Assembly: GCF_054482525.1 (NCBI RefSeq)
Contig: NZ_CM137006.1
Reading direction: 5' to 3' (one strand)
Length of the DNA: 64,000 bases
This document shows positions 9,631-44,955 of this stretch, in pieces. The notes under the pieces were generated by a model. The model did no database searches and was not told where the DNA came from. It was given only the letters and a program-made list of their open reading frames with translations. Each line of letters opens with the position of its first letter. Positions within the stretch are counted from its first letter, which is position 1. The position numbers were made by a program, and so were the translations under genes.

Positions 9631-11631
9631 TCATCCTTGTTGCTGAAGCATGTGGAATAATTGTTCGCAAAGCAAAACACCGTTATTCATTGCTTCTACC
9701 CGTGCCTCGCTTTCTGTATTACAAAATTGTGCCAACACATGTGCCAGCCGATAAAAACCGACCGCGGTGAGGTCATTCGCCAGCAACTCTGCCTGACCAA
9801 TAGCACTCTGTTCCTGATAGCGCCAGCCGTTATGGAGCAGTTGAATAAGTAACGCCTGGCAGCGCATCAGCAACTGATGAGCGGTAGACGGCACAGGCAG
9901 AACGCTGGCAGAAGGTAGCGGTGCCACAGGCGCAGTTTCTGCGTCCAGCGCCCAGGCGCGGGTTTTGGTCATCATTACCCGTGGTTCCAGTGTCAATTGC
10001 CCCTCAACAAAACTGACAAAGCCAGAAACCAGACTCACGGGGTCGTCTGTGTGTTGCAAAAGTGCCGCCATGCGTTCAACGGCAAAAGGCGCGCTGGCTG
10101 AGGCTGGCAGTGATAAAGTCAGCAGATTATCTTCACCTTCGCCGCTGATTACCTGCGCATCCAGCGTCTGGCGGCTGCTATCCCAACCGAGTGAAATACA
10201 CTCAGCGACTGGCAGAATAAATAAGTTATCCACCTGATTAAGAGGCCGTATGCAGGCGGGGGGACGCTGGCGTAAATATTCCCGCAAAGCCACAATGCCC
10301 GACTGGCGCAATGGCGCGCTCAACATTTGCCAGGCGTCTGGCGACAGCGGCACAACGCTGCTTAAGCGGTTGCGGGTAGCTAACAACAGCTCGCCATCGG
10401 CACTGCGTTTTGCTGCTTGTGAAACAATTTGCCCACCTGCCAGTGCGCCAGCCAGAAAACTAAACAGCCGACGCGTCGCTGCCGGTGAGTTTTCCTGTTC
10501 GCTTCTCGGCCAACTACGCGAAAGATGCAAAATACTGCCAGTGTCGGGATCGGTAAACCAGATGCGTAAACCATAATGCTCAATATCCTGCCAGCAACGC
10601 ATACCTAAAGACACCAGCCGCAGATGATCAAGCTTTGCTTCTCCGGCAATGCCAGAGCCAACGACCGTGCGCCACGGCACAGGAGGAACTTCACCAACAC
10701 TGTCGCGCCGGGCCATCTCTTGTGCGCAATTTAATCGACTGTTTAATGCCGCAAGCTGACGTAAGCATTCTCCGACATGATAGTGGCTGGCGCGGGCGTG
10801 GAAGGCATCAACGCTGGCGCGCAGTTGCCGTAGCGATTCACTCACCCAGCGCCAGTTGCAGCGTTCCGCCGCTTGCTGCGCGCGGCTGAAAGCAGCCTTG
10901 TAATGAATAAGCGGCTGGCTGATGCCGCCAAGCCATAACGCCTGGCTTAATTGCTGAACATATTGACGACACGCGTCGCCCTCATCGTTGGCAAACGGAT
11001 CGTCAGATGATGTGACGTGTTCGCTGCGCATCTGCCAGATTAAATGAGTAAATTCCGCTTGCTGCGCTTTGGCCTGGACAAAGGCCTGTACTGCCAGTAC
11101 GACATGTTCGCAAAGTGTGCCGTCAATACAATCACAGCGTGCGAAACGAATGCTGCTGCGGGAATAAAAACGTACATCGCTCATCGGTAAGCGGGCAGAG
11201 GGAATTTCGCCCGGCGTACAGAACAACTCAATGGTGATGCCTTTAGCGACCAGTGTCTGTGCGCGTTTGCGGGTGGCATCGGGCAGGGTAGCCAGTTCTT
11301 CCAGCCAGATTGCCGGATCCCACTCTTCTTCTTTTTCCGTAGGCTGGGTGGTGGCGCAAAGTCGCTGATAACTTAAAACCAGCATCACGCGATGGCGGCA
11401 CATGCCGCTGGCCCCGCAGCTGCATTGAGCCTCTTTCAGTGCCTGACCGTTCGCCAGCTGGGTGCGGACACCGTCACTGAAGGTGGCGATTAAAGCGCCG
11501 TTCTCATGGCTGATTTCCGGGACGTTGCCATTTTCCAGTTCTTTAAGGCTGCGCTTAACAAAACCGGCATTGCTTAACGCCGTCAAAGCTTGTGGTGTCA
11601 GTTCTAATAATTCCGGCCGTAGTGAATTCAT
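9631..11631 (-). CDS. yehQ: SWIM zinc-finger protein
   Basis: Two CxCx(n)CxH SWIM-like motifs (CSCGASGMCRHRV, CDCIDGTLCEHVV). It is the last gene of the yehLMPQ cluster, and its start overlaps the yehP stop (ATGA). Confidence 0.7.
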   Translation of the reverse strand: MNSLRPELLELTPQALTALSNAGFVKRSLKELENGNVPEISHENGALIATFSDGVRTQLANGQALKEAQCSCGASGMCRHRVMLVLSYQRLCATTQPTEKEEEWDPAIWLEELATLPDATRKRAQTLVAKGITIELFCTPGEIPSARLPMSDVRFYSRSSIRFARCDCIDGTLCEHVVLAVQAFVQAKAQQAEFTHLIWQMRSEHVTSSDDPFANDEGDACRQYVQQLSQALWLGGISQPLIHYKAAFSRAQQAAERCNWRWVSESLRQLRASVDAFHARASHYHVGECLRQLAALNSRLNCAQEMARRDSVGEVPPVPWRTVVGSGIAGEAKLDHLRLVSLGMRCWQDIEHYGLRIWFTDPDTGSILHLSRSWPRSEQENSPAATRRLFSFLAGALAGGQIVSQAAKRSADGELLLATRNRLSSVVPLSPDAWQMLSAPLRQSGIVALREYLRQRPPACIRPLNQVDNLFILPVAECISLGWDSSRQTLDAQVISGEGEDNLLTLSLPASASAPFAVERMAALLQHTDDPVSLVSGFVSFVEGQLTLEPRVMMTKTRAWALDAETAPVAPLPSASVLPVPSTAHQLLMRCQALLIQLLHNGWRYQEQSAIGQAELLANDLTAVGFYRLAHVLAQFCNTESEARVEAMNNGVLLCEQLFHMLQQQG

Positions 11632-16242: not shown

Positions 16243-16335
16243 AAATAAAAAAACCTGCTGGTGAGGCAGGTTCTTTGATTTACTACTTTCAGGCCTAACA
16301 CCACGGCCTGTGCAACATCGTGTTCCAACGAACGA
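16243..16335 (-). ncRNA. orzO: candidate OrzO antitoxin sRNA (antisense to the zorO 5' UTR region)
   Basis: A minus-strand intrinsic terminator (stem cctgcctcaccagcagg plus U-run ending near 16246) sits upstream of and divergent from zorO. This is the architecture described for zor-orz loci. The ends given are approximate. Confidence 0.35.
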
Positions 16336-16852: not shown

Positions 16853-16945
16853 AAAATAAAAGAACCTGCTGGTGAGGCAGGTTCTTTTATTTACTACTTT
16901 GATGTTAAGTTACTGATAGTGCAACATGGCATCTCAACGAACGAA
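16853..16945 (-). ncRNA. orzP: candidate OrzP antitoxin sRNA
   Basis: Counterpart of orzO in repeat unit 2. The terminator stem is conserved but the U-run is weaker. Confidence 0.3.
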
Positions 16946-34827: not shown

Positions 34828-35661
34828 TTATCGCATTATGCCCATAAAGCCATGCACACCCATATACACACCAACTAAGCCAATCAACAGACTGGAAAAA
34901 TAGGGGGCGCGTTTAGCGAGAGTGTTAAATCCGCTCCAGCGTTTTGCGACCTGCTGAACGCTGATTGCTGCGCCAACGCCTACGGTGACCAGCGTTAACG
35001 CCAGGCCGATGCTGAAACTGACGACCAGTGTTGCGCCCAGTGTCAGGGCTTTCAACTGAATGCAAATCAACAGCACGGTAATTGCTGCCGGGCAGGGGAT
35101 AAGGCCACCGGTTAAGCCAAATAACAAAATTTGCCAGTTGGTGACCTCTCTACCATCAAAGCGTCGTTTAATGTCATTGGCATGGGCTCGTGCATGAGCA
35201 TCCTGATACTCCCCATGTTCGTGATGGTGATGATGTCCATGGTCGTGGTGATCTTCGTGATCGTGATGATGATGGTGATGATGCTCATGATCATGCCCGT
35301 GCATATTCTCCAGCCAGTTGCGTTCGCCGCGCCAGGTACGCCAGAACATCCAGAACGCGGTGCCAATAATGATCACCGCGGAAATCAACTGGAGCCACGG
35401 TTCTGCTGATTGAGCAGTAAAGCGCTTACTGATCACCATCCCGCCAAAGGCAATCAACCAGACCACCGCGGTATGCGAAATGGTTGCTGCCAGTCCGAGC
35501 ATCACCGCCTGTTTAATGGTGCCTTTGATGGCGATGATAAACGCCGCCATCATCGTTTTTGAGTGCCCTGGTTCCAGGCCATGAAGCGCACCAAGTAAGA
35601 TGGCGCTGGGGATGAAGAACCAGGCGTTTCCTTGCTGAAGAAGAGTGGTAAATTCGGTCAT
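34828..35661 (-). CDS. rcnA: nickel/cobalt efflux permease with His-rich loop
   Basis: 277 aa. Poly-His loop HEHHHHHHHDHEDHHDHGHHHHHEH. NicO family. Confidence 0.85.
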   Translation of the reverse strand: MTEFTTLLQQGNAWFFIPSAILLGALHGLEPGHSKTMMAAFIIAIKGTIKQAVMLGLAATISHTAVVWLIAFGGMVISKRFTAQSAEPWLQLISAVIIIGTAFWMFWRTWRGERNWLENMHGHDHEHHHHHHHDHEDHHDHGHHHHHEHGEYQDAHARAHANDIKRRFDGREVTNWQILLFGLTGGLIPCPAAITVLLICIQLKALTLGATLVVSFSIGLALTLVTVGVGAAISVQQVAKRWSGFNTLAKRAPYFSSLLIGLVGVYMGVHGFMGIMR

Positions 35662-35781: not shown

Positions 35782-36054
35782 ATGTCTCATACCATCCGTG
35801 ATAAACAGAAACTGAAAGCGCGTGCCAGTAAGATTCAGGGCCAGGTCGTGGCGCTCAAGAAAATGCTCGACGAGCCGCACGAATGCGCTGCAGTTTTACA
35901 ACAGATTGCTGCTATCCGTGGCGCGGTAAACGGTCTGATGCGGGAAGTGATTAAAGGTCATCTGACGGAACACATCGTTCACCAGGGGGATGAGCTAAAA
36001 CGTGAAGAAGATCTGGATGTCGTTCTGAAGGTGCTGGATTCTTATATCAAATAA
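35782..36054 (+). CDS. rcnR: Ni/Co-responsive repressor (CsoR/RcnR family)
   Basis: 90 aa, [35 protein letters not shown]... Confidence 0.85.
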
Positions 36055-36142
36055 TTTATTAACGCTATTGTAAAACTGCCGTTTTTCCTCGTTTACAACG
36101 GGTGCGCTGGACATTACCATCCTCCTCTGCGATTTATCATCG

Positions 36143-36224
36143 CAACCAAACGACTCGGGGTGCCCTTCTGCGTGAAGGCTGAGAAATACCCGTATCACCT
36201 GATCTGGATAATGCCAGCGTAGGG
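36143..36224. repeat. attL-like 82-bp direct repeat: duplicated 5' part of the thiM TPP-riboswitch aptamer
   Basis: Identical to 44033..44114. It lies between rcnR and an integrase gene. Confidence 0.85.
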
Positions 36225-36307
36225 GGCCAAAATAGTCTTGAAAATTATGTGGTTGTATCTCTTTTTGACCATAAATCATGCTGTTAAGGTACAAAAAGGG
36301 GTCGTTT

Positions 36308-37615
36308 ATGAGGTCAAGAACTCTCCCATACACATTTCAGCGAAACGGTAATTACTATCTACAAATCCGGCTTTCGGATGGTCGGATATACAAAAAATCA
36401 CTTTTTACTGACAGTTATCGCGAAGCATCGGCGTTGATGATTGGCCTTACTCCGCACATTCCTTTCGTTAAATCACTCGCTACTCCGTTGCCGCAATTTA
36501 ATAAGTTTGTTTCAAACTTGATCGCTTCGTCACGTAACGTAATGATTCCGTTGCCACTCCCTCAGCAATTGAACAATATTTCTAAAGAAGTTTTGCAGCT
36601 TCAACCACCAGCCAAACCGGAAAAGGTACTAACACTTGCTGATGCGTGGGCTATGTACAAGGAGGAAAGAGGTCGAAATTGGACAAAATCGATCTCAATA
36701 GCAAATGAGCGTTATATGGAGGTATTGCTTGTTGTCTTGGGAAAAGAAACAGACGTAACGGCAATCACCAAACAAGATATTAAGCGAGTAATGGAAACTG
36801 TCGAAAACTTACCAAAGCGTGTAGTGCAACCGTATAGGTCAATGACTATTCAGCAACTAATCGAATGTGATGATGTGCTGCCAGAGGATTTAGTTGGTGC
36901 TGAGGCTGTACATAAGCACCTTAAAATCTACAAATCGTTATTCAAAACATTTCTGACTGAAAACAAAGATATTCTATCTAAGTCTCCGACTGATGGAATA
37001 GTAGCGGCACCATCCAAAGCTAGGTTTGGTGCATACAGTGCAGCAGAAATGAAAAAATTTGTAGGATGGGCACTAAAGCAGCCTGATGGATGGCAGAAGT
37101 GGATCACTTTGTTGTTGGCGTACACAGGAGCCAGAAGAGGTGAGATTGCTAAACTGGAGAAGTCGCAGATCAAATTTGATGAAGATAGCCAGCGGCACTA
37201 TCTTCTGATCGCGGAAAGAAGGCTGGGTAAAACTGAGAATGCTACAAGACAGGTAGTGATTCATCCCAAACTGATTGAGTGGGGGTTTCTGGATTTTGTT
37301 AACCGCCAATGGAAAGAGAAAATCTTTTCGGAAGTCTCAGGTCGAAATATGTCAAAGATAGGTAAAGTTCTTTCAGATGTTCGTGATCAGCTTGATATTC
37401 CTTATCTTGATGATTATGGGCAGCGGCGCTTGGTGCATAGTTTCCGGCATACTATGATTTCTACTTGTTTAGCTGGTTGGGTGAGTAATTTGGCGCATCT
37501 GCAACAGGTGGTAGGTCATGAAAAGAGTGGAGTAGGGATTACCCAGCGTTATCTGCACACATTCCCACTTTCCACCGTTTGTTATGTGATCGATGGTCTT
37601 TGTTGGGAGACTTAG
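36308..37615 (+). CDS. tyrosine-type site-specific integrase
   Basis: 435 aa from MRSRTL, using the start downstream of RBS aaaagggg; the alternative start is at 36278. The C-terminal catalytic region has R...HSFRHT...Y (VHSFRHTMIS, ITQRYLH) and sits next to an att repeat. Confidence 0.8.
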   Translation: MRSRTLPYTFQRNGNYYLQIRLSDGRIYKKSLFTDSYREASALMIGLTPHIPFVKSLATPLPQFNKFVSNLIASSRNVMIPLPLPQQLNNISKEVLQLQPPAKPEKVLTLADAWAMYKEERGRNWTKSISIANERYMEVLLVVLGKETDVTAITKQDIKRVMETVENLPKRVVQPYRSMTIQQLIECDDVLPEDLVGAEAVHKHLKIYKSLFKTFLTENKDILSKSPTDGIVAAPSKARFGAYSAAEMKKFVGWALKQPDGWQKWITLLLAYTGARRGEIAKLEKSQIKFDEDSQRHYLLIAERRLGKTENATRQVVIHPKLIEWGFLDFVNRQWKEKIFSEVSGRNMSKIGKVLSDVRDQLDIPYLDDYGQRRLVHSFRHTMISTCLAGWVSNLAHLQQVVGHEKSGVGITQRYLHTFPLSTVCYVIDGLCWET

Positions 37616-37743
37616 TTATTCGTGTATCCTTCTTAGTGTATAACCAGCTAATAATTTGTAGATTTTTATTGTCTGAGATCAAAAATTTTCACAACTAATT
37701 TACAATAATAACTTAAGATGAATTTAGGCTTAGTGAGTCTTCT

Positions 37744-38469
37744 ATGGTTAAAAATTTAGGCAAAAAATACAAGTATGGCGATCAACCGATAAGAGCTATT
37801 ACCATACAGATAATTGCTAATCAGTTTGGTGGGGCTGCAACGGCTAAGCAGGTAGATGATTATCTTAGAAAGCTATTTCCATCTTATAAAGATAATACTT
37901 GGCTCAATTTAATTGCTAATACAGTTAATTGTAAGCGGAGCTACTGGAGTTTCAACAAAACTGCCCGACGAACTGATGATGTAACTCATCGGCATCATAA
38001 GTATGACCGATTGTTCAAGCGTGGAAATATTTTTGAAATCTATCAACCATCTGTGCACGGTATTTGGGAATTATACCAGGATTTAGAAGGGATGTGGCGT
38101 TATCGTCAAGTAAAATCGGTTTTCGAAGAAGCTGTTGAGACGGCTGCAAAATTATCTTCAGTGGAACGAAAGCAAATTTTAGCGACAGAAAGTAAAATCC
38201 CGGAACTAATCGAAGTAACAACACGAGTTTATAAACGAAGCCCATATGTAGTTGCTGAAGTTCTTTTGAGAGCAAATGGAAAATGTCAATATTGTAAGCG
38301 AGATGCTCCTTTTCTAAAGGAAGATGGTACTCCATTTCTAGAAGTTCATCATATTGAGTGGCTTTCAAAGGGGGGGGAGGACTCTGTGGAAAATGCTATT
38401 GCATTATGTCCTAATTGCCATAGACAAGCCCATTATGGCGATCTGACATTACTACCTGTTAATAAATAG
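37744..38469 (+). CDS. McrA-like HNH endonuclease (putative type IV modification-dependent restriction enzyme)
   Basis: The C-terminal motif CQYCKRDAPFLKEDGTPFLEVHHIEWLSKGGEDSVENAIALCPNCHRQAHYGD is a close pattern match to the McrA HNH region. The N-terminal roughly 150 aa are unrelated to any family I recognise. Confidence 0.55.
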   Translation: MVKNLGKKYKYGDQPIRAITIQIIANQFGGAATAKQVDDYLRKLFPSYKDNTWLNLIANTVNCKRSYWSFNKTARRTDDVTHRHHKYDRLFKRGNIFEIYQPSVHGIWELYQDLEGMWRYRQVKSVFEEAVETAAKLSSVERKQILATESKIPELIEVTTRVYKRSPYVVAEVLLRANGKCQYCKRDAPFLKEDGTPFLEVHHIEWLSKGGEDSVENAIALCPNCHRQAHYGDLTLLPVNK

Positions 38470-38546
38470 GCTTGATGAAAGTTCTATTTCTATATTTTTC
38501 AATATACAAATTTCCCCAAAAACGGCGTGAATATCACGCCGATCAA

Positions 38547-38894
38547 TCATACTTCAGAACACATACTCAATGTGTAAACAGCCATCTCCCCATCGGGATT
38601 AGAAGGGCGTAATACAAATATCGGTATACTGCCATTGTCAATGTATGTGGCTGCAACCCCTCCGTCAGGTGTAGCATACATCTTTGCGATGCTTTTTTGA
38701 CCTACAAAATCAAGTCTCCAAGTTTTACCGCCAAGATTTATGGTCATTTTTTTATCTTGTATATCAAAAGTTGAATCTACAGAAACTTTCTGACTTCCCG
38801 AGTCAATATGACCTTCCTGTATTGCTTTACAGGAAAAGGTTGTGGCGTGGCCCATCACTGGAATTAACAAAGCGGCAAATACTAGTTTTTTCAT
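38547..38894 (-). CDS. small secreted protein (signal peptide MKKLVFAALLIPVMGHA)
   Basis: 115 aa from MKKL. RBS aagggagacaa. Convergent with the HNH gene. Confidence 0.5.
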   Translation of the reverse strand: MKKLVFAALLIPVMGHATTFSCKAIQEGHIDSGSQKVSVDSTFDIQDKKMTINLGGKTWRLDFVGQKSIAKMYATPDGGVAATYIDNGSIPIFVLRPSNPDGEMAVYTLSMCSEV

Positions 38895-39004
38895 TTGTCT
38901 CCCTTGGTGTGTCAAATGGATGGTGATGCTAATAATACATGATTGATTCAAAATGTCACGATTAGTGCGTGGTTAATTGGTGCGTCAAATTGCATCTTTG
39001 TGCC

Positions 39005-39469
39005 ATGCGAAAGAATCTGAGATACCTTTTTGGACAACGAGTAAAAGAGTTCCGTATAGCTATTGGCTTAAGCCAAGAGGCCTTTGCAGATCGGTGTGGT
39101 TTTGCACGTAGTTATATGAGTCGAATTGAGCGTGGTTGCTCTAATGCATCTCTTGATGCAATTGAGGTTCTGGCTGACGCTTTGCGTATTGAGCCTTGGC
39201 AGTTACTGGCTTCTGATTCAAGGAAACCTGATGATCAGGAGGTACTTGTTCCTTATGCTGCAGATGGGTCGTGTTTTCATCCAGGATTGGCAAGTACTCG
39301 CGATGGTTCGTTTAGAGTAGGGGAAAAATCAGCCCAGAAACGTTTCAGTTCGTTCAATGAAGCTCTCGAATACCTTCGTGGAATGGAAACCGCGAAGTGG
39401 CGTAGGCCTAATGCTAGTGGTAATTGGGGAATTGTATCTGCGGTTAAATGGGATCGACTGAATCAATAA
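39005..39469 (+). CDS. XRE-family HTH transcriptional regulator with a C-terminal extension
   Basis: HTH reads LRYLFGQRVKEFRIAIGLSQEAFADRCGFARSYMSRIERG. 154 aa. Confidence 0.65.
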   Translation: MRKNLRYLFGQRVKEFRIAIGLSQEAFADRCGFARSYMSRIERGCSNASLDAIEVLADALRIEPWQLLASDSRKPDDQEVLVPYAADGSCFHPGLASTRDGSFRVGEKSAQKRFSSFNEALEYLRGMETAKWRRPNASGNWGIVSAVKWDRLNQ

Positions 39470-39635
39470 GATATCAGTAATTTTCGGGCCACTCCACAAG
39501 GCAATAAGTGGCTTAGTGGTGATTATCGAAGGGGAATACAAGCGAGCACCTAGGCACCATTGCAAGAACCGCTCAACGCTGAGATCAGCAAGCCCCGATT
39601 TTTGCCGACCGTCCCTGTCAAATATCAAGGAGGCA

Positions 39636-40187
39636 TTACGCCACCTGCTCTTTCTTGATACGTTGCACCGTCTGCGTGCTGACACTGAAATCTTTTGCTA
39701 CGCTCCGAATTGAGCCACCATTCGCGAGAGCGGCAGCAATTCCCGCTCGATCAATTGCTTTTCCATTACCACGTTTTGCTATACGTCCAGCGGCCTTGGC
39801 TGCGGCGATCCCTTCACGTTGACGCTCAAGCATCATTTCACGTTCCATTTGTGCCACTGCTGCAAGAACTGTGAGCATCATATTCCCTGCGGGAGAGTTC
39901 TTTCCTGTCTTAAAGTCTTCTTTATGGAAATGCACAGACACGCCGCGCTTTGTTAATTGCTCTACAGTTGCCAGAAGGTCGGCTGTATTACGACAAAGGC
40001 GATCAATACTATGGACGTGTAACACGTCACCCTCCCGCACATAGTTCATCATTGCCTCAAACTGTGGGCGCTGAGTGTTCTTGCCTGACGCTTTATCTTC
40101 AAAGACTTTATCAAGAGTTACTCCTGCTAATTGACGGTCTGTGTTTTGTTGCACAGTCGATACCCTAATGTATCCAATATTAGCCAT
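39636..40187 (-). CDS. small serine recombinase (resolvase/invertase family)
   Basis: N-terminal catalytic motif IGYIRVSTVQQNTDRQ with the active-site Ser. The C-terminal HTH reads SIRSVAKDFSVSTQTVQRI. 183 aa. Confidence 0.8.
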   Translation of the reverse strand: MANIGYIRVSTVQQNTDRQLAGVTLDKVFEDKASGKNTQRPQFEAMMNYVREGDVLHVHSIDRLCRNTADLLATVEQLTKRGVSVHFHKEDFKTGKNSPAGNMMLTVLAAVAQMEREMMLERQREGIAAAKAAGRIAKRGNGKAIDRAGIAAALANGGSIRSVAKDFSVSTQTVQRIKKEQVA

Positions 40188-40219
40188 CTTCTTTTTTCTT
40201 CTGTATTGATTTGTGTGTA

Positions 40220-40325
40220 GTGATTATTGAACGTGTTGATTAGGTGTGTAAAGTACTTTTTTCACTACGAAATTCGAAGTTTTTTAGTGTGGTGATTTAG
40301 CCTGCCTTATCACTACACTTCTTGC
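40220..40325. promoter_or_regulatory. candidate res/recombination site: clustered inverted copies of GTGTAGTGAT(T/A)A just upstream of the serine recombinase gene
   Basis: Motifs found at about 40226 (gtgtagtgatta), 40262 (tcactacg, inverted), 40283 (agtgtggtgatt) and 40309 (atcactacac, inverted). The arrangement resembles multi-subsite res sites. Confidence 0.3.
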
Positions 40326-40571
40326 ATGAGAATCATGTAGTTACATTTTGGTAAAATTAGCAAGCTATTAAATTGTGTGTTTATTTTGAAAAAATAATTT
40401 TTGTTGCATTAAAGAAAACTTGTTCGACAAATAATAGGTTGATTTTTGATCAATAATTTCTGATAGTGCTCTGTAAGCCGCATTACACAAGGCGCAGCGA
40501 AAGTGATGTAAAAGTGAAGAAAGCTAACATTGCACTTTTAAACTACTTTTCATTGAATTTTTTAGTATGGA

Positions 40572-40644
40572 ATTACACAGGAATAAGTTAGGGATATTCT
40601 ATGATTTACACAGGGAATATAGGGGGATTATGGTATTACACAGA
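40572..40644. repeat. three spaced (a/t)ttacacag motifs, 33 and 31 bp apart, upstream of the iterons
   Basis: attacacagg at 40572, tttacacagg at 40605 and attacacaga at 40636. Possible protein-binding array (DnaA- or IHF-like sites or Rep auxiliary sites). Confidence 0.35.
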
Positions 40645-40673
40645 GTGAGTGCTATGTGATGATTGGTAGTAAC

Positions 40674-40783
40674 GGTAGGTCACTGTGAACTAGGGGGGTA
40701 GGTCACTGTGAACTAGGGGGGTAGGTCACTGTGAGCTAGGGGGTAGGTCACTGTGAACTAGGGGGTAGGTCACTGTGAACTAC
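40674..40783. repeat. five tandem 22/23-bp iterons (TAGGTCACTGTGAACTAGGGGG), putative replication origin
   Basis: Copies start at 40676, 40699, 40722, 40744 and 40766. They are directly followed by an AT-rich tract of about 90 bp (40784..40870) made of ataataagactat-type repeats, a candidate DNA-unwinding element. There are no spacers, so this is not CRISPR. Confidence 0.85.
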
Positions 40784-41884
40784 AATAAGACTATAATAAG
40801 ACTATTAATAAAACTATATTAGATTATTAATTAGATCATAATAATAATATTCTTTATATCTATATATATATGATCTTTTGCCTTCCGGCGTTAGCTTCAC
40901 TCTCTGGCAAGCAGCCTTACTCCGCTACCTTTCGGGCTACGTTGGCTGGCCCGTTCCGCTCACACCGAAAGCAAAGCGTTACTTTCTTCGTGTAACTTCG
41001 TTGGCGGTAACGCCCACGAAGGAATACTATTGCGCTGTGCGCAGTAAGAGTAATCACCTAACCAATCATCTGATTGCTTACGTGTTAACTCTCTCTAACT
41101 CTTAATTACCCTCCTACATTTAATAACTCTCGTTATTCTCTGTAGTTGTGTAATTACTCGAAGAGAGAGCGGCTAAAGCTCAATTACACTCTGCTTTCCT
41201 CGTGTAATTTCACTAAGCCTCAATACAATTTCACTTCCTACATTCTGTAGTCGTGTAATTGTTTTCGGTGGAAAAGCCAGAGGCGACACCGAAAGAGAAT
41301 TCTGATCTTATTAATCTTATCTATCTTAGTTATCTTACTTACTTTATCTACTTTATTATTAATAATAGCTTTATAAGCTCTCTGTGTAGCTCTCTGACGC
41401 AAGAAACAGAGTTCAGGAAGGGAATCACCTTAGAAAAGTGTTCTTTGCGTCATAATGTGTTTTATGAAGGATTCAGAGGTGTTTCATAACAGAGATGTAT
41501 AGAGGATACTTTAGGTAATTAAAAATAAGGGGTCTAAATGCTTCTCTAACAGCATTAAGCAGGGTAGAGAATGGAAACCGCTTTGCCTACATATATAAAC
41601 TCACTACAGGGCTTTACAGAGCGTTTTATAAAGTGACTCTCTGTTTTATATCTACCATCACCTTTTCATATACCTAACAAATACAAAATAAGCCCCTTAA
41701 ATAAGCCTCTGGCGAGCTAAACAGCCATTACATAAGAGAATGTATTGCTTTTATCAAAACCTCGTTAGAACGCGTTTTAGAGCGTTTTAGCGGATAATGA
41801 AGAATAGCACTACACAGGAGAGCACGAATTGCTAAGAAAAAATGTAACTACATGAAAAAGATCAGATTTTTTGTGAAAAGGTAT

Positions 41885-41913
41885 TGACAAACGTCTCTTT
41901 CTGTGCAATAATA
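41885..41913 (+). promoter_or_regulatory. sigma70-like promoter (TTGACA-17-AATAAT) for the small-gene operon
   Basis: Consensus -35, 17-bp spacer and an A/T-rich -10, located about 125 bp upstream of the first ORF. Confidence 0.4.
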
Positions 41914-42038
41914 GGTATTAGAGGGACAGGAATAGATTCTTATCCTCTAAATAATTAAACCAATGCACCGCACTTTGAAGCCCAAGGCTTGTAAGGTGTG
42001 TTTTTTCTTTTAACCAAATAGAATAAGGAGGCTAATTA

Positions 42039-42227
42039 ATGAAATATTTTACTCCACAGGATGTAGTAGAAGCCTGGAAACGTGGTGAGATCAACCGCTT
42101 TAAAGTAAGGATGTATAGAAACACCGCTCGCCGTTGTGGTTATCCAGAGCGTGAAAAATGTTTTGACGATGCACTAAAAATTATTGATGAACTGCGTAAA
42201 GCTGAGAAAGAAGCAGAGAAAAAATAA
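42039..42227 (+). CDS. hypothetical 62-aa basic protein
   Basis: Strong RBS aaggagg. It is the first gene of a tightly packed 4-gene operon. Confidence 0.45.
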   Translation: MKYFTPQDVVEAWKRGEINRFKVRMYRNTARRCGYPEREKCFDDALKIIDELRKAEKEAEKK

Positions 42228-42249
42228 TAGACAAGAGAAGGAGAAAACT

Positions 42250-42417
42250 ATGAGCGAAACTAAGAAACCAATTCCGCGCACTTACCTACACGTTGACCCT
42301 GAAATCTTCAAGGTTTTATTTGCTGAAGCCAAGAAAAGGCAAATTATGGTCAGTGATTTGATGTTAGAAATCATTACTGAAGCAGCAGAGAACATCAAAC
42401 AAAAAAAGGGTAAGTGA
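42250..42417 (+). CDS. 55-aa putative ribbon-helix-helix (CopG/Arc-like) DNA-binding protein
   Basis: RBS aggag. Its size and the N-terminal beta-strand (PRTYLHVDPEIF) followed by two helices look RHH-like. This is an inference from sequence pattern only. Confidence 0.35.
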   Translation: MSETKKPIPRTYLHVDPEIFKVLFAEAKKRQIMVSDLMLEIITEAAENIKQKKGK

Positions 42418-42468
42418 TCCTCATTCACTTTAGTAGCGCATTAAGCGTGATTTATAAGGAGATTTTTA

Positions 42469-43158
42469 ATGATTAATCAACTAACTTTTACAAAACACTA
42501 TGACACGTTTGATAATGTATCAAAGATTTATTCTGATAAATTCCCTCAAGGAAAAGATTTAGATCTATTACATATTGTGCTTTATTTTCGATTCCTTAGT
42601 TATCAGGAAAACAACCTTAATTGTTATGAAAGTCACGAAACATTAGCTAAGATTTTTAAGTCTTCAGCGTCAACAATTAAACGTAAGATAAACGATCTTA
42701 AAGAGATGGGATTATTAGAAACATCCCCACATCCTGATCCGTATATTTCATCTTTGATTTACAATGCTCTCCCTCTCACAGATGCACATATTACTCCCCC
42801 AGGAGAATCATCACTCTCTGATCTTTCTGAGGCAGAAGAAGCACAGGAACAACCTAAAGGCCATAAACAGCCTTCTTTTGATGTTCTTGATGATTGGGAT
42901 ACGCCTTTACCCTGGGAGACGGAAGAAACACCTGTTTCATCAAGTGAAAAAGTAGCTAATGATAATGAGGAGGATGTGTTAGAGAATTTTGCCTCTCTTA
43001 TCATCCAGGAGAAACACACAAGAACAGGAGGAGCATCATTTATTGAGTTTGCAAATTCACTAGCTTGTAGATACGGGCTAAAACGACCAAATGGTATTGA
43101 GGCATATTTTTCTAAGAATTACCCAAATATATACGATGACTTTGATATTCCATTTTAA
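42469..43158 (+). CDS. 229-aa winged-helix protein with an acidic disordered C-terminal half, candidate replication initiator
   Basis: HTH-like segment HETLAKIFKSSASTIKRKINDLKEMGLLE. Strong RBS taaggag. It is encoded downstream of the iteron array. No recognised family without a search. Confidence 0.4.
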   Translation: MINQLTFTKHYDTFDNVSKIYSDKFPQGKDLDLLHIVLYFRFLSYQENNLNCYESHETLAKIFKSSASTIKRKINDLKEMGLLETSPHPDPYISSLIYNALPLTDAHITPPGESSLSDLSEAEEAQEQPKGHKQPSFDVLDDWDTPLPWETEETPVSSSEKVANDNEEDVLENFASLIIQEKHTRTGGASFIEFANSLACRYGLKRPNGIEAYFSKNYPNIYDDFDIPF

Positions 43159-43169
43159 TAAGGAGGGTT

Positions 43170-43415
43170 ATGATTCAATATTTAGTAAAAAATCAAGTAG
43201 ACAGAATTCAGTGTAATGACACAGGAAAACGCATCTACGAGACACTTGTTTACCTCTATAAAGGAAAGCCAACACCGCTAAAATATAGCGATGTGTTACA
43301 TCGAGCAGGTTGCTCTGAGTCAGGTTTAAAATTCTGGCTGAAACAGCTATCAAATTTCGGTGTTATTGAAATGAAAGAGCTGTCTTTTTCTACATTCAAC
43401 CTCAAGAAGTTATAG
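43170..43415 (+). CDS. 81-aa putative winged-helix DNA-binding protein
   Basis: RBS aaggaggg. The segment DVLHRAGCSESGLKFWLKQLSNFGVIE resembles a wHTH. Confidence 0.4.
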   Translation: MIQYLVKNQVDRIQCNDTGKRIYETLVYLYKGKPTPLKYSDVLHRAGCSESGLKFWLKQLSNFGVIEMKELSFSTFNLKKL

Positions 43416-43580
43416 AAAATAGAATTCATCTATTCCACGCTCTAATTCTATTTCTCTGTTTAATATAAAAGGAAAACATTATTATGGTAATAGCTATGTG
43501 GTGGTTGTTGTTTTTTATGCTCGTAGAAACATATGCAAGTAAGTCTGGAAAACAAAAATAATATATTGATGATTTGTTTT

Positions 43581-43820
43581 TTATAACTTCGTGGTGTCAA
43601 GTCCAGCAGCTTTGAGTCGCTCGGTAAGATTTCTCATTTTGCTGAACTCTGTACCAAAGCTGGCTTTAAGTCCTACACCTTCACAAAACTCTTTTGCCGT
43701 AACCTTTTTCAGATGGTCAGCATATTTGATCATCTGGAGGTGCATTTCCATCGTTTGGCTATTTCGTGGTGCGCTGCTAATGGCTTGCTTAATGTTCTCG
43801 TAGATCTGGGTTTCTGTCAT
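43581..43820 (-). CDS. 79-aa hypothetical protein, convergent with the operon, at the island right end
   Basis: RBS ggtgag. No recognised family. Confidence 0.4.
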   Translation of the reverse strand: MTETQIYENIKQAISSAPRNSQTMEMHLQMIKYADHLKKVTAKEFCEGVGLKASFGTEFSKMRNLTERLKAAGLDTTKL

Positions 43821-44032
43821 TTTTTATCTCACCTATCAAATTTAGATAAATAATATAAATTAGCAAATTAAGATAATCAATAGTTTTTATCATCTGAATG
43901 ATAGATGTTAAATGTTTCTTTTTCATTTCTGATATGGGGTACAAAATGGGGTACACAGAGAAGAAGCAATTAATGGAGGCGAGCTTGCATCTGCAAGCCA
44001 CTTCCCCTAAGCTGGCACAAAATATAGAGATT

Positions 44033-44114
44033 CAACCAAACGACTCGGGGTGCCCTTCTGCGTGAAGGCTGAGAAATACCCGTATCACCTGATCTGGATA
44101 ATGCCAGCGTAGGG
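44033..44114. repeat. attR-like 82-bp direct repeat (5' part of the native thiM riboswitch)
   Basis: Identical to 36143..36224. It is contiguous with the remainder of the thiM leader. Confidence 0.85.
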
Positions 44115-44166
44115 AAGTCACGGACCACCAGGTCATTGCTTCTTCACGTTATGGCAGGAGCAAACT
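44033..44166 (+). ncRNA. TPP (thi-box) riboswitch in the thiM 5' leader
   Basis: The sequence ...ACGACTCGGGGTGCCCTTCTGCGTGAAGGCTGAGAAATACCCGTATCACCTGATCTGGATAATGCCAGCGTAGGGAAGTCACGGACCACCAGGTCATTGCTTCTTCACGTTATGGCAGGAGCAAACTATG matches the well-studied E. coli thiM riboswitch, both aptamer and expression platform. Confidence 0.9.
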
Positions 44167-44955
44167 ATGCAAGTCGACCTGCTGAGTTCCGCGCAATCTG
44201 CGCACGCGTTACACCTTTTTCACCAACATTCCCCTCTTGTGCACTGCATGACCAACGATGTGGTGCAAACCTTTACTGCCAATACCTTGCTGGCGCTCGG
44301 TGCATCGCCAGCGATGGTTATCGAAACCGAAGAGGCCAGTCAGTTTGCGGCTATCGCCAGTGCGTTGCTGATTAACGTTGGCACGCTGACGCAGCCACGC
44401 GCACAGGCGATGCGTGCCGCCGTTGAACAGGCAAAACGCTCTCAAACACCCTGGATGCTTGATCCAGTAGCGGTGGGTGCACTCGATTATCGCCGCCGTT
44501 TTTGTCTGGAACTTCTGTCTCATAAGCCAACCGCCATACGTGGTAATGCTTCGGAAATCATGGCATTAGCTGGCGTTGCTAATGGTGGACGGGGAGTGGA
44601 TACCACTGACGCCGCAGCTAACGCGATACCCGCTGCACAAACACTGGCACGGGAAACTGGCGCAATCGTCGTGGTCACTGGCGAGATGGATTATGTTACC
44701 GATGGACATCGTATCATTGGTATTCACGGTGGCGATCCGTTAATGACCAAAGTGGTAGGAACTGGCTGTGCATTATCGGCGGTTGTCGCTGCCTGTTGTG
44801 CGTTACCAGGCGATATGCTGGAAAATGTCGCATCTGCCTGTCACTGGATGAAACAAGCCGGAGAACGCGCAGTCGCCAGAAGCGAGGGGCCAGGCAGTTT
44901 TGTTCCACATTTCCTTGATGCGCTCTGGCAATTGACGCAGGAGGTGCAGGCATGA
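44167..44955 (+). CDS. thiM: hydroxyethylthiazole kinase
   Basis: 262 aa, [30 protein letters not shown]... Confidence 0.9.

Follow-up and report, generated by a model that had tools for sequence, protein, structure and literature searches.

Integrative elements that target structured RNA genes, namely tRNA, tmRNA, ssrS and rnpB, carry a tyrosine integrase gene adjacent to the junction, and their target is restored by the copy carried in attP (PMC7192596). The same two properties are found in the subject of this study, an island of approximately 7.8 kb plus one repeat copy which lies between rcnR and thiM in a 64,000-nucleotide stretch of DNA (NCBI RefSeq assembly GCF_054482525.1, contig NZ_CM137006.1; the whole stretch is referred to as the window). 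This interval is a site-specific integrative mobile element. Its target differs in being a cis-regulatory riboswitch, the thiamine pyrophosphate (TPP) riboswitch of thiM, and it is the 5′ part of the target that is restored rather than the 3′ part; the host promoter would thereby be displaced and the island would have to supply the transcription of thiMD. Insertion at a 5′ end, with the element supplying a replacement 5′ sequence and promoter, is known for the SXT/R391 integrative and conjugative elements (ICEs), which use the 5′ end of prfC as their target, and for dusA-specific islands. These elements, which are likened to the present island by description only, differ from it in occupying protein-coding 5′ ends, and SXT is a self-transmissible ICE of approximately 100 kb.

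Islands at this site have been recorded before. The TIGER supplement lists the islands Eco824.15.TPP_RNA and Kox2.11.TPP_RNA (PMC7192596), and Hochhauser 2023 (PMC10121019) lists an rcnR–thiM island of strain 789 with a length of 7,956 bp, eight genes, a mobile genetic element (MGE) entry of ‘None’ and the system RM_type_IV. This island lies outside the 41 hotspots of that study, in which integrase-only islands are discussed as possible unknown satellites. Some thiM-site islands of 3.4–5.4 kb hold an integrase and defence genes alone and fit the description of such ‘integrase-only’ defence islands, whereas the island in the window adds a replication module, a putative resolvase, regulators and relatives with capsid genes. 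A further component belongs to the family of the repressor RptR, which was characterized in 2025 from the RRDM defence island of enteropathogenic Escherichia coli (EPEC; PMC12255303). An earlier note on this DNA, made from the sequence without database searches, had suggested an undescribed family. The site, the island and RptR had by then been reported in the three publications cited; none of these characterizes the element, and no paper characterizing it, or a satellite of the Stephanstirmvirinae, was found in the literature searched, which left most subscription journals outside. The riboswitch target and the island are catalogued but not studied.

The boundaries of the island are marked by a direct repeat of 82 nt, 100% identical between its two copies and with a spacing of 7,890 bp (repeat search). 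An exact match of an 82-mer by chance in 64 kb is effectively impossible. The features at the two ends are the following.

36143–36224, + strand: attL copy of the repeat, comprising the 5′-terminal 82 nt of the thiM TPP aptamer and ending right before the 3′ strand of helix P1.
36308–37615, + strand: tyrosine integrase of 435 aa, specific for the thiM TPP riboswitch (PF00589, phrog_1).
44033–44114, + strand: attR copy of the repeat, the 5′ part of the intact thiM TPP riboswitch (aptamer 44036–44132, thiM ATG at 44167).

Both repeat copies exceed the gathering threshold of the TPP family (RF00059) in an Rfam scan. The right aptamer, at 71.2 bits, has P1 unbroken and continues into thiM, and the riboswitch at attR is functional-looking by its sequence. 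The left aptamer (36146–36241, 61.3 bits) has broken P1 pairs, because the repeat stops just before the 3′ strand of P1, and is without an expression platform; it is a riboswitch remnant. The arrangement follows from the copy of the 5′ aptamer part (82 nt) that the element brings with it, by which an intact riboswitch is rebuilt at attR and a truncated copy is left at attL. The rcnR gene ends at 36054, and the integrase ATG, with a good Shine-Dalgarno sequence, is found 83 bp past the left repeat. GC content is 0.33–0.45 in the island, with approximately 0.50 over the serine recombinase gene, and 0.53–0.58 in the thiMD flank. The base-for-base identity of the two copies, the right copy as the native thiM thi-box, the position of the integrase behind rcnR, the AT-rich interior and the gene list (tyrosine integrase, HNH nuclease, XRE regulator, serine recombinase, small-gene operon and iterons) had all been claimed in the earlier note and are borne out here. 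The kinship with capsid-bearing elements of 12 kb, the variable cargo, the displacement of the promoter and a conserved non-coding kilobase had been missed.

Homologues of the integrase with 64–84% identity were found at 32 loci in 18 other genera of the Enterobacterales. At 29 of the 32 loci the 5′ part of the aptamer ends approximately 85 bp upstream of the integrase start, and in 13 loci a second copy of the aptamer lies 2.6–11.4 kb downstream, followed by thiM wherever the sequence reaches that far. The junction in all of these loci follows GCGTAGGG in subfamily A; in subfamily B it lies two bases earlier and follows GCGTAG. At some loci (L016; L018 and L029, on the same contig; L022; L042) two different thiM-site islands stand in tandem, with the right end of one island abutting the attL of the next. 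These results show that insertion of the element into the thiM TPP aptamer, just upstream of the 3′ strand of P1, is the work of a dedicated lineage of tyrosine integrases. Candidate binding sites for the integrase are located in both arms.

36286–36293, + strand: AAGGTACA, candidate arm-type Int site of the int-proximal arm; GRGGTACA repeats are conserved in both arms of islands from five other genera.
43934–43955, + strand: two direct ATGGGGTACA repeats, conserved, candidate arm-type Int sites of the int-distal arm.

Repeats of the ATGGGGTACA type are present in two to three copies in the right arm of six loci from other genera. The GRGGTACA repeats as a whole are conserved, the right arm bearing two to three of them and the left arm one or two, and we infer that they are arm-type integrase sites.

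More distant relatives of the integrase (approximately 30% identity) in marine Gammaproteobacteria lie behind a complete RNase P RNA gene, at a distance of 85–95 bp. In the rnpB-linked loci L043, L045, L049, L051 and L052 the integrase begins at 10001 and rnpB ends at approximately 9906–9915, and one of them has a second, partial rnpB copy 3.2 kb downstream (L049:13140–13342). These loci look like small islands targeting rnpB. As they share the geometry of the thiM islands, it is suggested that the clade targets structured RNAs and that one of its branches moved to the TPP aptamer.

To determine the occurrence of the island in E. coli, the reconstructed empty site, consisting of the end of rcnR, one repeat copy and the start of thiM, was sought in 5,426 complete genomes. 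It was contiguous in 4,727 of them, K-12, CFT073 and UTI89 included, so the empty site with a single 82-bp copy which had been expected does exist and the interval is not universal in the species. The whole island with both repeats is present in 64 of the 5,426 genomes and is 100% identical in strain SCU-102. The integrase was detected in 146 genomes of E. coli and the right end of the island in 563; among the integrase matches listed, nearly every one has an annotated TPP riboswitch beneath it. In a comparison of the window with strain EC-10, the rcnBAR and thiMD flanks were 96.4 and 97.9% identical, respectively, while the integrase, the lipo–XRE–recombinase block and the right end were 99.8–100% identical; a backbone conserved to this degree between flanks differing by 2–3.6% points to recent horizontal spread of the island. 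It is a genuine and recently mobile integrase island.

Remnants of the island were also found. In O157:H7 strain Z1813, an integrase-less remnant of 2.2 kb is located between rcnR and thiM (L116:17840–20003), comprising outer membrane protein (OMP)-like and lipo-like genes, a C-terminal fragment of the Rep-like initiator described below, the RptR gene and the right arm. It is split exactly where the repeat starts and its right end is kept, so that the thiM riboswitch of this strain has island DNA upstream. Remnants of this kind, which lack the integrase but keep the RptR gene and the right arm, have become fixed in O157:H7; a degraded remnant riddled with insertion sequences (IS) was seen in an extraintestinal pathogenic E. 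coli (ExPEC) strain.

The consequences of insertion for thiM expression were considered from the promoters predicted at either end.

36092–36120, + strand: candidate native thiM promoter, TTTACA-N17-TACCAT, with nine of 12 matches in the promoter scan, to the left of the repeat.
43983–44013, + strand: candidate replacement promoter facing thiM, TTGCAT-N17-TAAGCT, conserved and sub-consensus, overlapping the palindrome GCTTGC-N4-GCAAGC.

Given that the native promoter lies to the left of the repeat, it would after integration read into attL and int, not into thiM. A consensus outward promoter at the right end was sought and rejected, as none passes the scan, and the conserved sub-consensus candidate remains. 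The motif TTGCNN-N17-TAAKCT is conserved in all subfamily-A right ends, and the O157:H7 remnant retains exactly the right end which bears it. It is therefore suspected that promoters are swapped upon insertion, with a conserved weak promoter at the right end driving thiMD. Riboswitch control of int through attL was also considered and set aside: P1 is broken there, the window and most other genera have different sequences past the junction, and no conserved feature suggesting that the attL remnant controls int was found in the aptamer scan or in the cross-genus comparison of junctions.

Behind the integrase gene the island carries a cargo slot followed by backbone genes, with a repressor gene near its right end.

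37744–38469, + strand: McrA-like type IV HNH endonuclease of 241 aa, the cargo (PF01844; PADLOC mREase_IV, 1.3e-23).
38547–38894, − strand: small secreted protein with a signal peptide, backbone (phrog_35183), conserved in siblings carrying GmrSD and in other genera.
39005–39469, + strand: XRE-family C-protein-like regulator, backbone (HTH_31/HTH_3; PADLOC control protein, 6.6e-17).
39636–40187, − strand: small serine recombinase of 183 aa (PF00239, 1e-38).
40333–40349, no strand: near-palindromic 17-mer TCATGTAGTTACATTTT, candidate recombinase site adjoining the recombinase gene, with an inverted partner at 41839–41855.
43581–43820, − strand: RptR-family repressor of 79 aa with an HTH_73 domain (PF24718, 1e-30).
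43843–43866, no strand: candidate RptR-type operator region, with TAGATA at 43843–43848 and a degenerate TAGCAA at 43861–43866.

The HNH protein, proposed earlier to be a defence nuclease, is a McrA-like type IV restriction nuclease by sequence (PADLOC, PDB 6GHC). The match to E. coli McrA (6GHC, 5.5e-23) covers residues 141–232, the C-terminal third, with residues 1–140 matching no family and the model being poor, with pLDDT falling to approximately 30 over residues 53–94. In ATCC 8739 and in enterotoxigenic E. coli (ETEC) strains the slot behind int on the same backbone is filled by a GmrSD gene, and in other genera by an OLD/AriA-like ATPase, a type II methylase–nuclease pair or an AbiU-like protein. 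This shows that the slot holds interchangeable anti-phage cargo. The XRE regulator is approximately 99% identical in siblings bearing different cargo.

The serine recombinase is about equally close to the Tn3/gamma-delta resolvase (3e-27) and to Gin (1.6e-24), and is probably a multimer resolvase. As the 17-mer and its partner form a perfect 17-bp inverted repeat (40333/41839) and the recombinase is Hin/Gin-like, an invertible segment was considered; it was rejected, with the inverted junction present in none of the 5,426 genomes. The right copy of the 17-mer is imperfect in siblings and not conserved, which also weighs against a DNA switch, and the left copy is found only in elements with this serine recombinase.

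The RptR homologue matches PDB 9R2Z (4e-32, approximately 68% identity) and keeps all seven named residues, E25, E58, S60, K61, L69, A72 and L74. These residues and the operator motif (TAGCTA/TAGATA/TATCTA/TATATA, with at least two sites in its own promoter) were defined in PMC12255303. The rptR promoter in the window has one exact TAGATA and the mutated TAGCAA; siblings have two or three sites, arranged TAGATA..TAGCTA(..TAGATA), and in these TAGATA/TAGCTA-type promoter sites, as in the identity of RptR and its conserved residues for DNA binding and dimerisation, the family resembles the EPEC RRDM island. Unlike that island, rptR in the window is monocistronic, lies at the right end and is 5 kb from a restriction gene of type IV, not type I. 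The HTH_73 protein was at first considered as a recombination directionality factor (RDF), on account of its far-end position and of a plasmid-borne homologue beside a tyrosine recombinase. PDB 9R2Z and PMC12255303 place it in the RptR repressor family, and a role as excisionase or RDF was rejected. On the plasmid concerned, the IncY plasmid pCP53-92k (L117:4009–5554), the RptR/HTH_73 homologue lies directly downstream of the tyrosine recombinase and beside a second integrase, an arrangement which resembles a multi-integrase (GInt-like) element.

Between the recombinase and RptR genes lies a putative replication module.

40564–40869, no strand: putative replication origin, with ATTACACAG repeats at 40564–40645, five iterons at 40671–40787 and an AT-rich stretch at 40788–40869.
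40870–41870, no strand: ultra-conserved, hairpin-rich non-coding DNA of approximately 1 kb between the origin and the rep promoter, with no open reading frame (ORF).
41884–41912, + strand: strong rep-operon promoter, TTGACA-N17-TG-AATAAT, 11 of 12 matches, approximately 1.1 kb past the iterons.
42039–42227, + strand: small ORF of 62 aa, the first gene of the rep operon (ORF call).
42250–42417, + strand: ribbon-helix-helix (RHH, CopG-like) protein of 55 aa upstream of rep, the RHH fold being assigned by eye without a match to a hidden Markov model.
42469–43158, + strand: Rep-like initiator of 229 aa (HTH_36; phrog_270/428/391, 2e-9 to 2e-4).
43170–43415, + strand: small ORF orf246 of 81 aa, shorter than the 92-aa homologue in the 12-kb relatives.

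The iterons are 22–23 bp in length, and their block, which is hypervariable, varies in step with Rep. The differences between EC-10 and the window lie mainly in the iteron block and the RHH–Rep genes, with the intervening non-coding stretch 90% identical. Among 37 loci, Rep identity ranges from 24 to 100% in backbones that are approximately 90–100% identical, and multiple copies of the window iteron are found only alongside a Rep of at least 92% identity; Rep and the iterons thus co-vary in sequence, as a specificity pair would. The 55-aa RHH-like protein is the probable repressor of the rep operon.

No match to Rep was found in the PDB by sequence. The model of Rep has a confident N-terminal winged helix, a disordered acidic linker and a confident helical C-domain, with non-significant fold matches to RepA_N and DnaD-N (E 0.02–0.07). 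Its C-terminus (43135–43158) reads YDDFDIPF, and most homologues, with identities as low as 24%, retain a terminal IPF or LPF. The tip of the E. coli single-stranded DNA-binding protein (SSB), DDDIPF, is the peptide on which PriA, chi, DnaG and other proteins dock. This resemblance suggests that the DDFDIPF tip of Rep mimics that of SSB and may recruit the host replication machinery.

The Rep family is small, with 39 clusters among 1.84 billion representatives. Of the 72,556 plasmid records in PLSDB only two contain Rep, the first being a captured element and the second a chromosome labelled wrongly, and among phages only phage inny gave a match, a weak one to the N-domain. The plasmid-like replicon claimed for the island in the earlier note was rejected on these grounds, since a protein absent from plasmids and nearly confined to integrated elements does not represent a plasmid replicon family. 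It is more likely that replication is transient and phage- or satellite-like rather than plasmid-type.

The non-coding kilobase is more conserved than the adjoining genes, with a mean identity of 96% in 40 unique copies and indels of 1–2 nt throughout, and a core of 58 nt (40904–40961) is invariant across genera, including elements of Enterobacter and Serratia. It folds into many hairpins (z of about −4, both strands alike). There was no Rfam match at E≤1, and RNAalifold detected essentially no compensatory changes in 25–40 unique copies, the sequence variation being too low for a covariation signal. No counterpart was found in phage collections, nor in the 72,556 plasmids save for one captured copy. 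Possible roles are those of a packaging signal, of priming sites or of a long RNA.

The module formed by the recombinase, the non-coding DNA and the RHH–Rep genes was found in 744 of the 5,426 complete E. coli genomes. The carriers inspected were islands of approximately 12 kb beside tRNA-Thr or tRNA-Gly with a different integrase (L006:7200–19430, L007 and L008), and they add a lambda-E-type major capsid protein (MCP), a Dit-like tail protein and a protein of 609 aa with a match to a ‘tape measure’ PHROG. Elements of the thiM type with capsid, tape measure protein (TMP)-like and Dit-like genes were found in Buttiauxella and Enterobacter. The capsid protein of these long forms is 24–27% identical to those of myoviruses of 93–138 kb. 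Homology between the window and the 12-kb relatives stops near 43533, and together with the truncated orf246 this leads us to read the window element as a short, capsid-less form.

A link to lytic phages was also detected. A stretch of 239 bp over the RHH gene (42238–42476) has 98–99.6% identity to the 146-kb Justusliebigvirus phages muut (L004:3001–3239) and inny (L003:3001–3235), and the 55-aa RHH protein is 100% identical to muut_153. Behind the RHH gene, both phages have a gene for a protein with two HTH_36 winged helices, related to that of Rep. The high identity shows that DNA has recently been exchanged between these phages and the element family. It should also be noted that the module, with its downstream genes, is present near sopAB on the conjugative IncFIB/FIC plasmid pEND_Eco 19019-1 (L005:7447–13439), where it is interrupted by IS3.

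The island was compared with the described classes of satellites and transferable islands. Phage-inducible chromosomal islands (PICIs), of which EcCICFT073 is the E. coli prototype, are likewise small integrase islands with accessory or defence cargo, and some carry a capsid gene, as do the 12-kb relatives; unlike the window element with its 229-aa winged-helix Rep, they have a pri-rep primase/helicase. No AlpA or Stl (Pfam, PHROGs, NCBIfam) and no terS, ppi, rpp or cos (Pfam, PHROGs) was found in the window, and PICI membership was rejected as the proteins of the island and of the 12-kb relatives showed no tblastn similarity to EcCICFT073 at E<0.01, primase included. P4-like satellites are integrase islands of a similar size class with a variable slot for anti-phage cargo; they differ in that the target in the window is not a tRNA and that alpha primase, psu, delta, sid, epsilon and cos are all absent from it (Pfam, PHROGs, NCBIfam). 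The head module of capsid-forming PICIs (cfPICIs), consisting of capsid, protease, portal, connectors and terS, is not present in the window, and unlike cfPICIs the 12-kb relatives have just the E-type MCP with the Dit-like and TMP-like genes. Neither a relaxase, a type IV coupling protein (T4CP) or a known oriT (Pfam, NCBIfam) nor conjugation, portal, terminase or PLE-type genes were detected in the window, and ICEs, prophages and cfPICIs are excluded by this gene content alone. The earlier view that the island fits neither the PICI and P4 templates nor, by gene content only, those of prophages and ICEs is upheld, and the integrative mobilizable element (IME) template also fails for want of a relaxase.

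Taken together, the island is probably an integrative defence element that targets a riboswitch and has a replicon of the inducible type; within a modular, satellite-like family it would be a member that lacks a capsid and relies on helper phages for transfer. Int inserts the element into the thiM TPP aptamer, with the GRGGTACA repeats as probable arm sites; the native thiM promoter would then read into int and the weak promoter at the right end would drive thiMD. The excised circle would replicate from the iteron/AT-rich origin, with the winged-helix Rep as initiator and its SSB-like DDFDIPF tail recruiting proteins of the host primosome or replisome. Control of rep may lie with the RHH protein and a leader, the serine recombinase may resolve multimers, and the XRE and RptR-like proteins may keep the element quiet. 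Transfer would depend on a helper phage, with the element paying its host in phage defence. The longer relatives (12 kb; at tRNA-Thr, tRNA-Gly or thiM) add the lambda-E-type capsid and tail-like genes.

A number of observations weigh against this explanation. No packaging function, capsid gene or cos/pac site was recognised in the window element and no helper is known, and no excisionase was identified in it. The assignment of Rep rests on weak matches to phage-initiator PHROGs (2e-9 to 4e-3), and its fold matches are non-significant, with a best Foldseek E of 0.02 and MarR regulators intermixed. No consensus outward promoter was found at the right end in the promoter scan, where the candidate falls below threshold. 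The attP-junction pattern gave no match in metagenome and viral contigs, so that no excised form was seen; 41 metagenome contigs contain the conserved 32-mer, and none of the 17 full-length ones is circular, as judged by terminal overlap. The matches in IMG/VR are contigs of 23–76 kb, exceeding the size of the element, and give no evidence of packaging. Right ends (563 genomes) far outnumber integrase carriers (146), remnants without int being commoner than intact elements, and with orf246 truncated and one half of the RptR operator mutated, the window copy itself could be partly decayed.

A more far-reaching version of the explanation is rather improbable. The thiM islands and the 12-kb tRNA-linked relatives, which together are present in approximately 14% of complete E. 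coli genomes, may form a new family of phage satellites with large lytic myoviruses, for example Justusliebigvirus, as helpers, a proposal we regard as speculative. Tentatively, the hallmarks of this family would be the SSB-mimicking winged-helix Rep, a hypervariable Rep/iteron cassette and the non-coding kilobase as a packaging and/or priming signal; its long forms could, with similar reserve, be defined by their own E-type capsid, Dit-like and TMP-like genes. That the phages captured the RHH repressor, 100% identical in muut, to silence replication of the satellite is an equally uncertain suggestion, as is the idea that the thiM forms rewire the expression of thiamine salvage by swapping the promoter before an intact riboswitch.

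Transfer of the island as an IME is improbable. Here a co-resident conjugative plasmid would transfer single-stranded DNA, its relaxase recognising an oriT mimic in the non-coding kilobase, and Rep, the SSB-like tail and the hairpins, as priming signals, would restore double-stranded DNA in the recipient. In favour of this, many hairpins form on either strand of the kilobase, a conjugative IncF plasmid carries one copy of the module, phage packaging genes are absent from the window element (Pfam, PHROGs), and PMC10121019 cites IMEs that lack a relaxase. Against this stand the missing relaxase, coupling protein and known oriT, the absence of the non-coding region from 72,556 plasmids save for the single capture, the capsid and tail-like genes of the longer relatives and the exchange of DNA with lytic phages.

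No more probable is a stranded defence island, once inserted by the integrase and now immobile and inherited vertically, which would be kept for its nuclease and for driving thiMD, with the replication module as a relic. The fixation in O157:H7 of int-less remnants with RptR and the right arm, which are commoner than intact islands, would agree with this, as would the degraded, IS-ridden copies, the truncated orf246 and mutated operator in the window and the absence of a circular form from metagenome and viral contigs. The family appears to be still active, however, as indicated by the perfect repeats and the intact int, rep and recombinase ORFs in the window, by a backbone 99.8–100% identical between flanks that diverge by 2–3.6%, by the swapping of Rep/iteron cassettes and cargo on the same backbone and by the tandem arrays in other genera. 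An assembly or duplication artefact in place of a real insertion has nothing but its a priori possibility in its favour and can be dismissed with near certainty: 64 complete E. coli genomes, each assembled independently, contain this structure, and 18 other genera share its att geometry.

Outside the island, two OrzO-P antitoxin RNAs were predicted on the − strand at 16247–16322 and 16858–16931 (RF02083, 90–92 bits), a pair which represents a tandem zor-orz type I toxin–antitoxin locus in a patch of low GC. Imperfect short repeats at 35199–35295 in rcnA correspond to its histidine-rich loop (HDHEHHHHHH...), an ordinary feature unrelated to the island.

The use of a riboswitch aptamer as a conserved landing pad in at least 19 genera, with deeper relatives of the integrase using RNase P RNA, provides a clean case for the shift of integrases between structured-RNA targets, and the integrase is a candidate insertion tool for a well-defined, harmless site. 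The island also ties ‘integrase-only’ defence islands to a replication module common to elements with capsid genes and to lytic phages, a link which gives a concrete hypothesis for the travel of defence cargo. For the host, approximately 10% of complete E. coli genomes, O157:H7 included, appear to run thiMD from island DNA.

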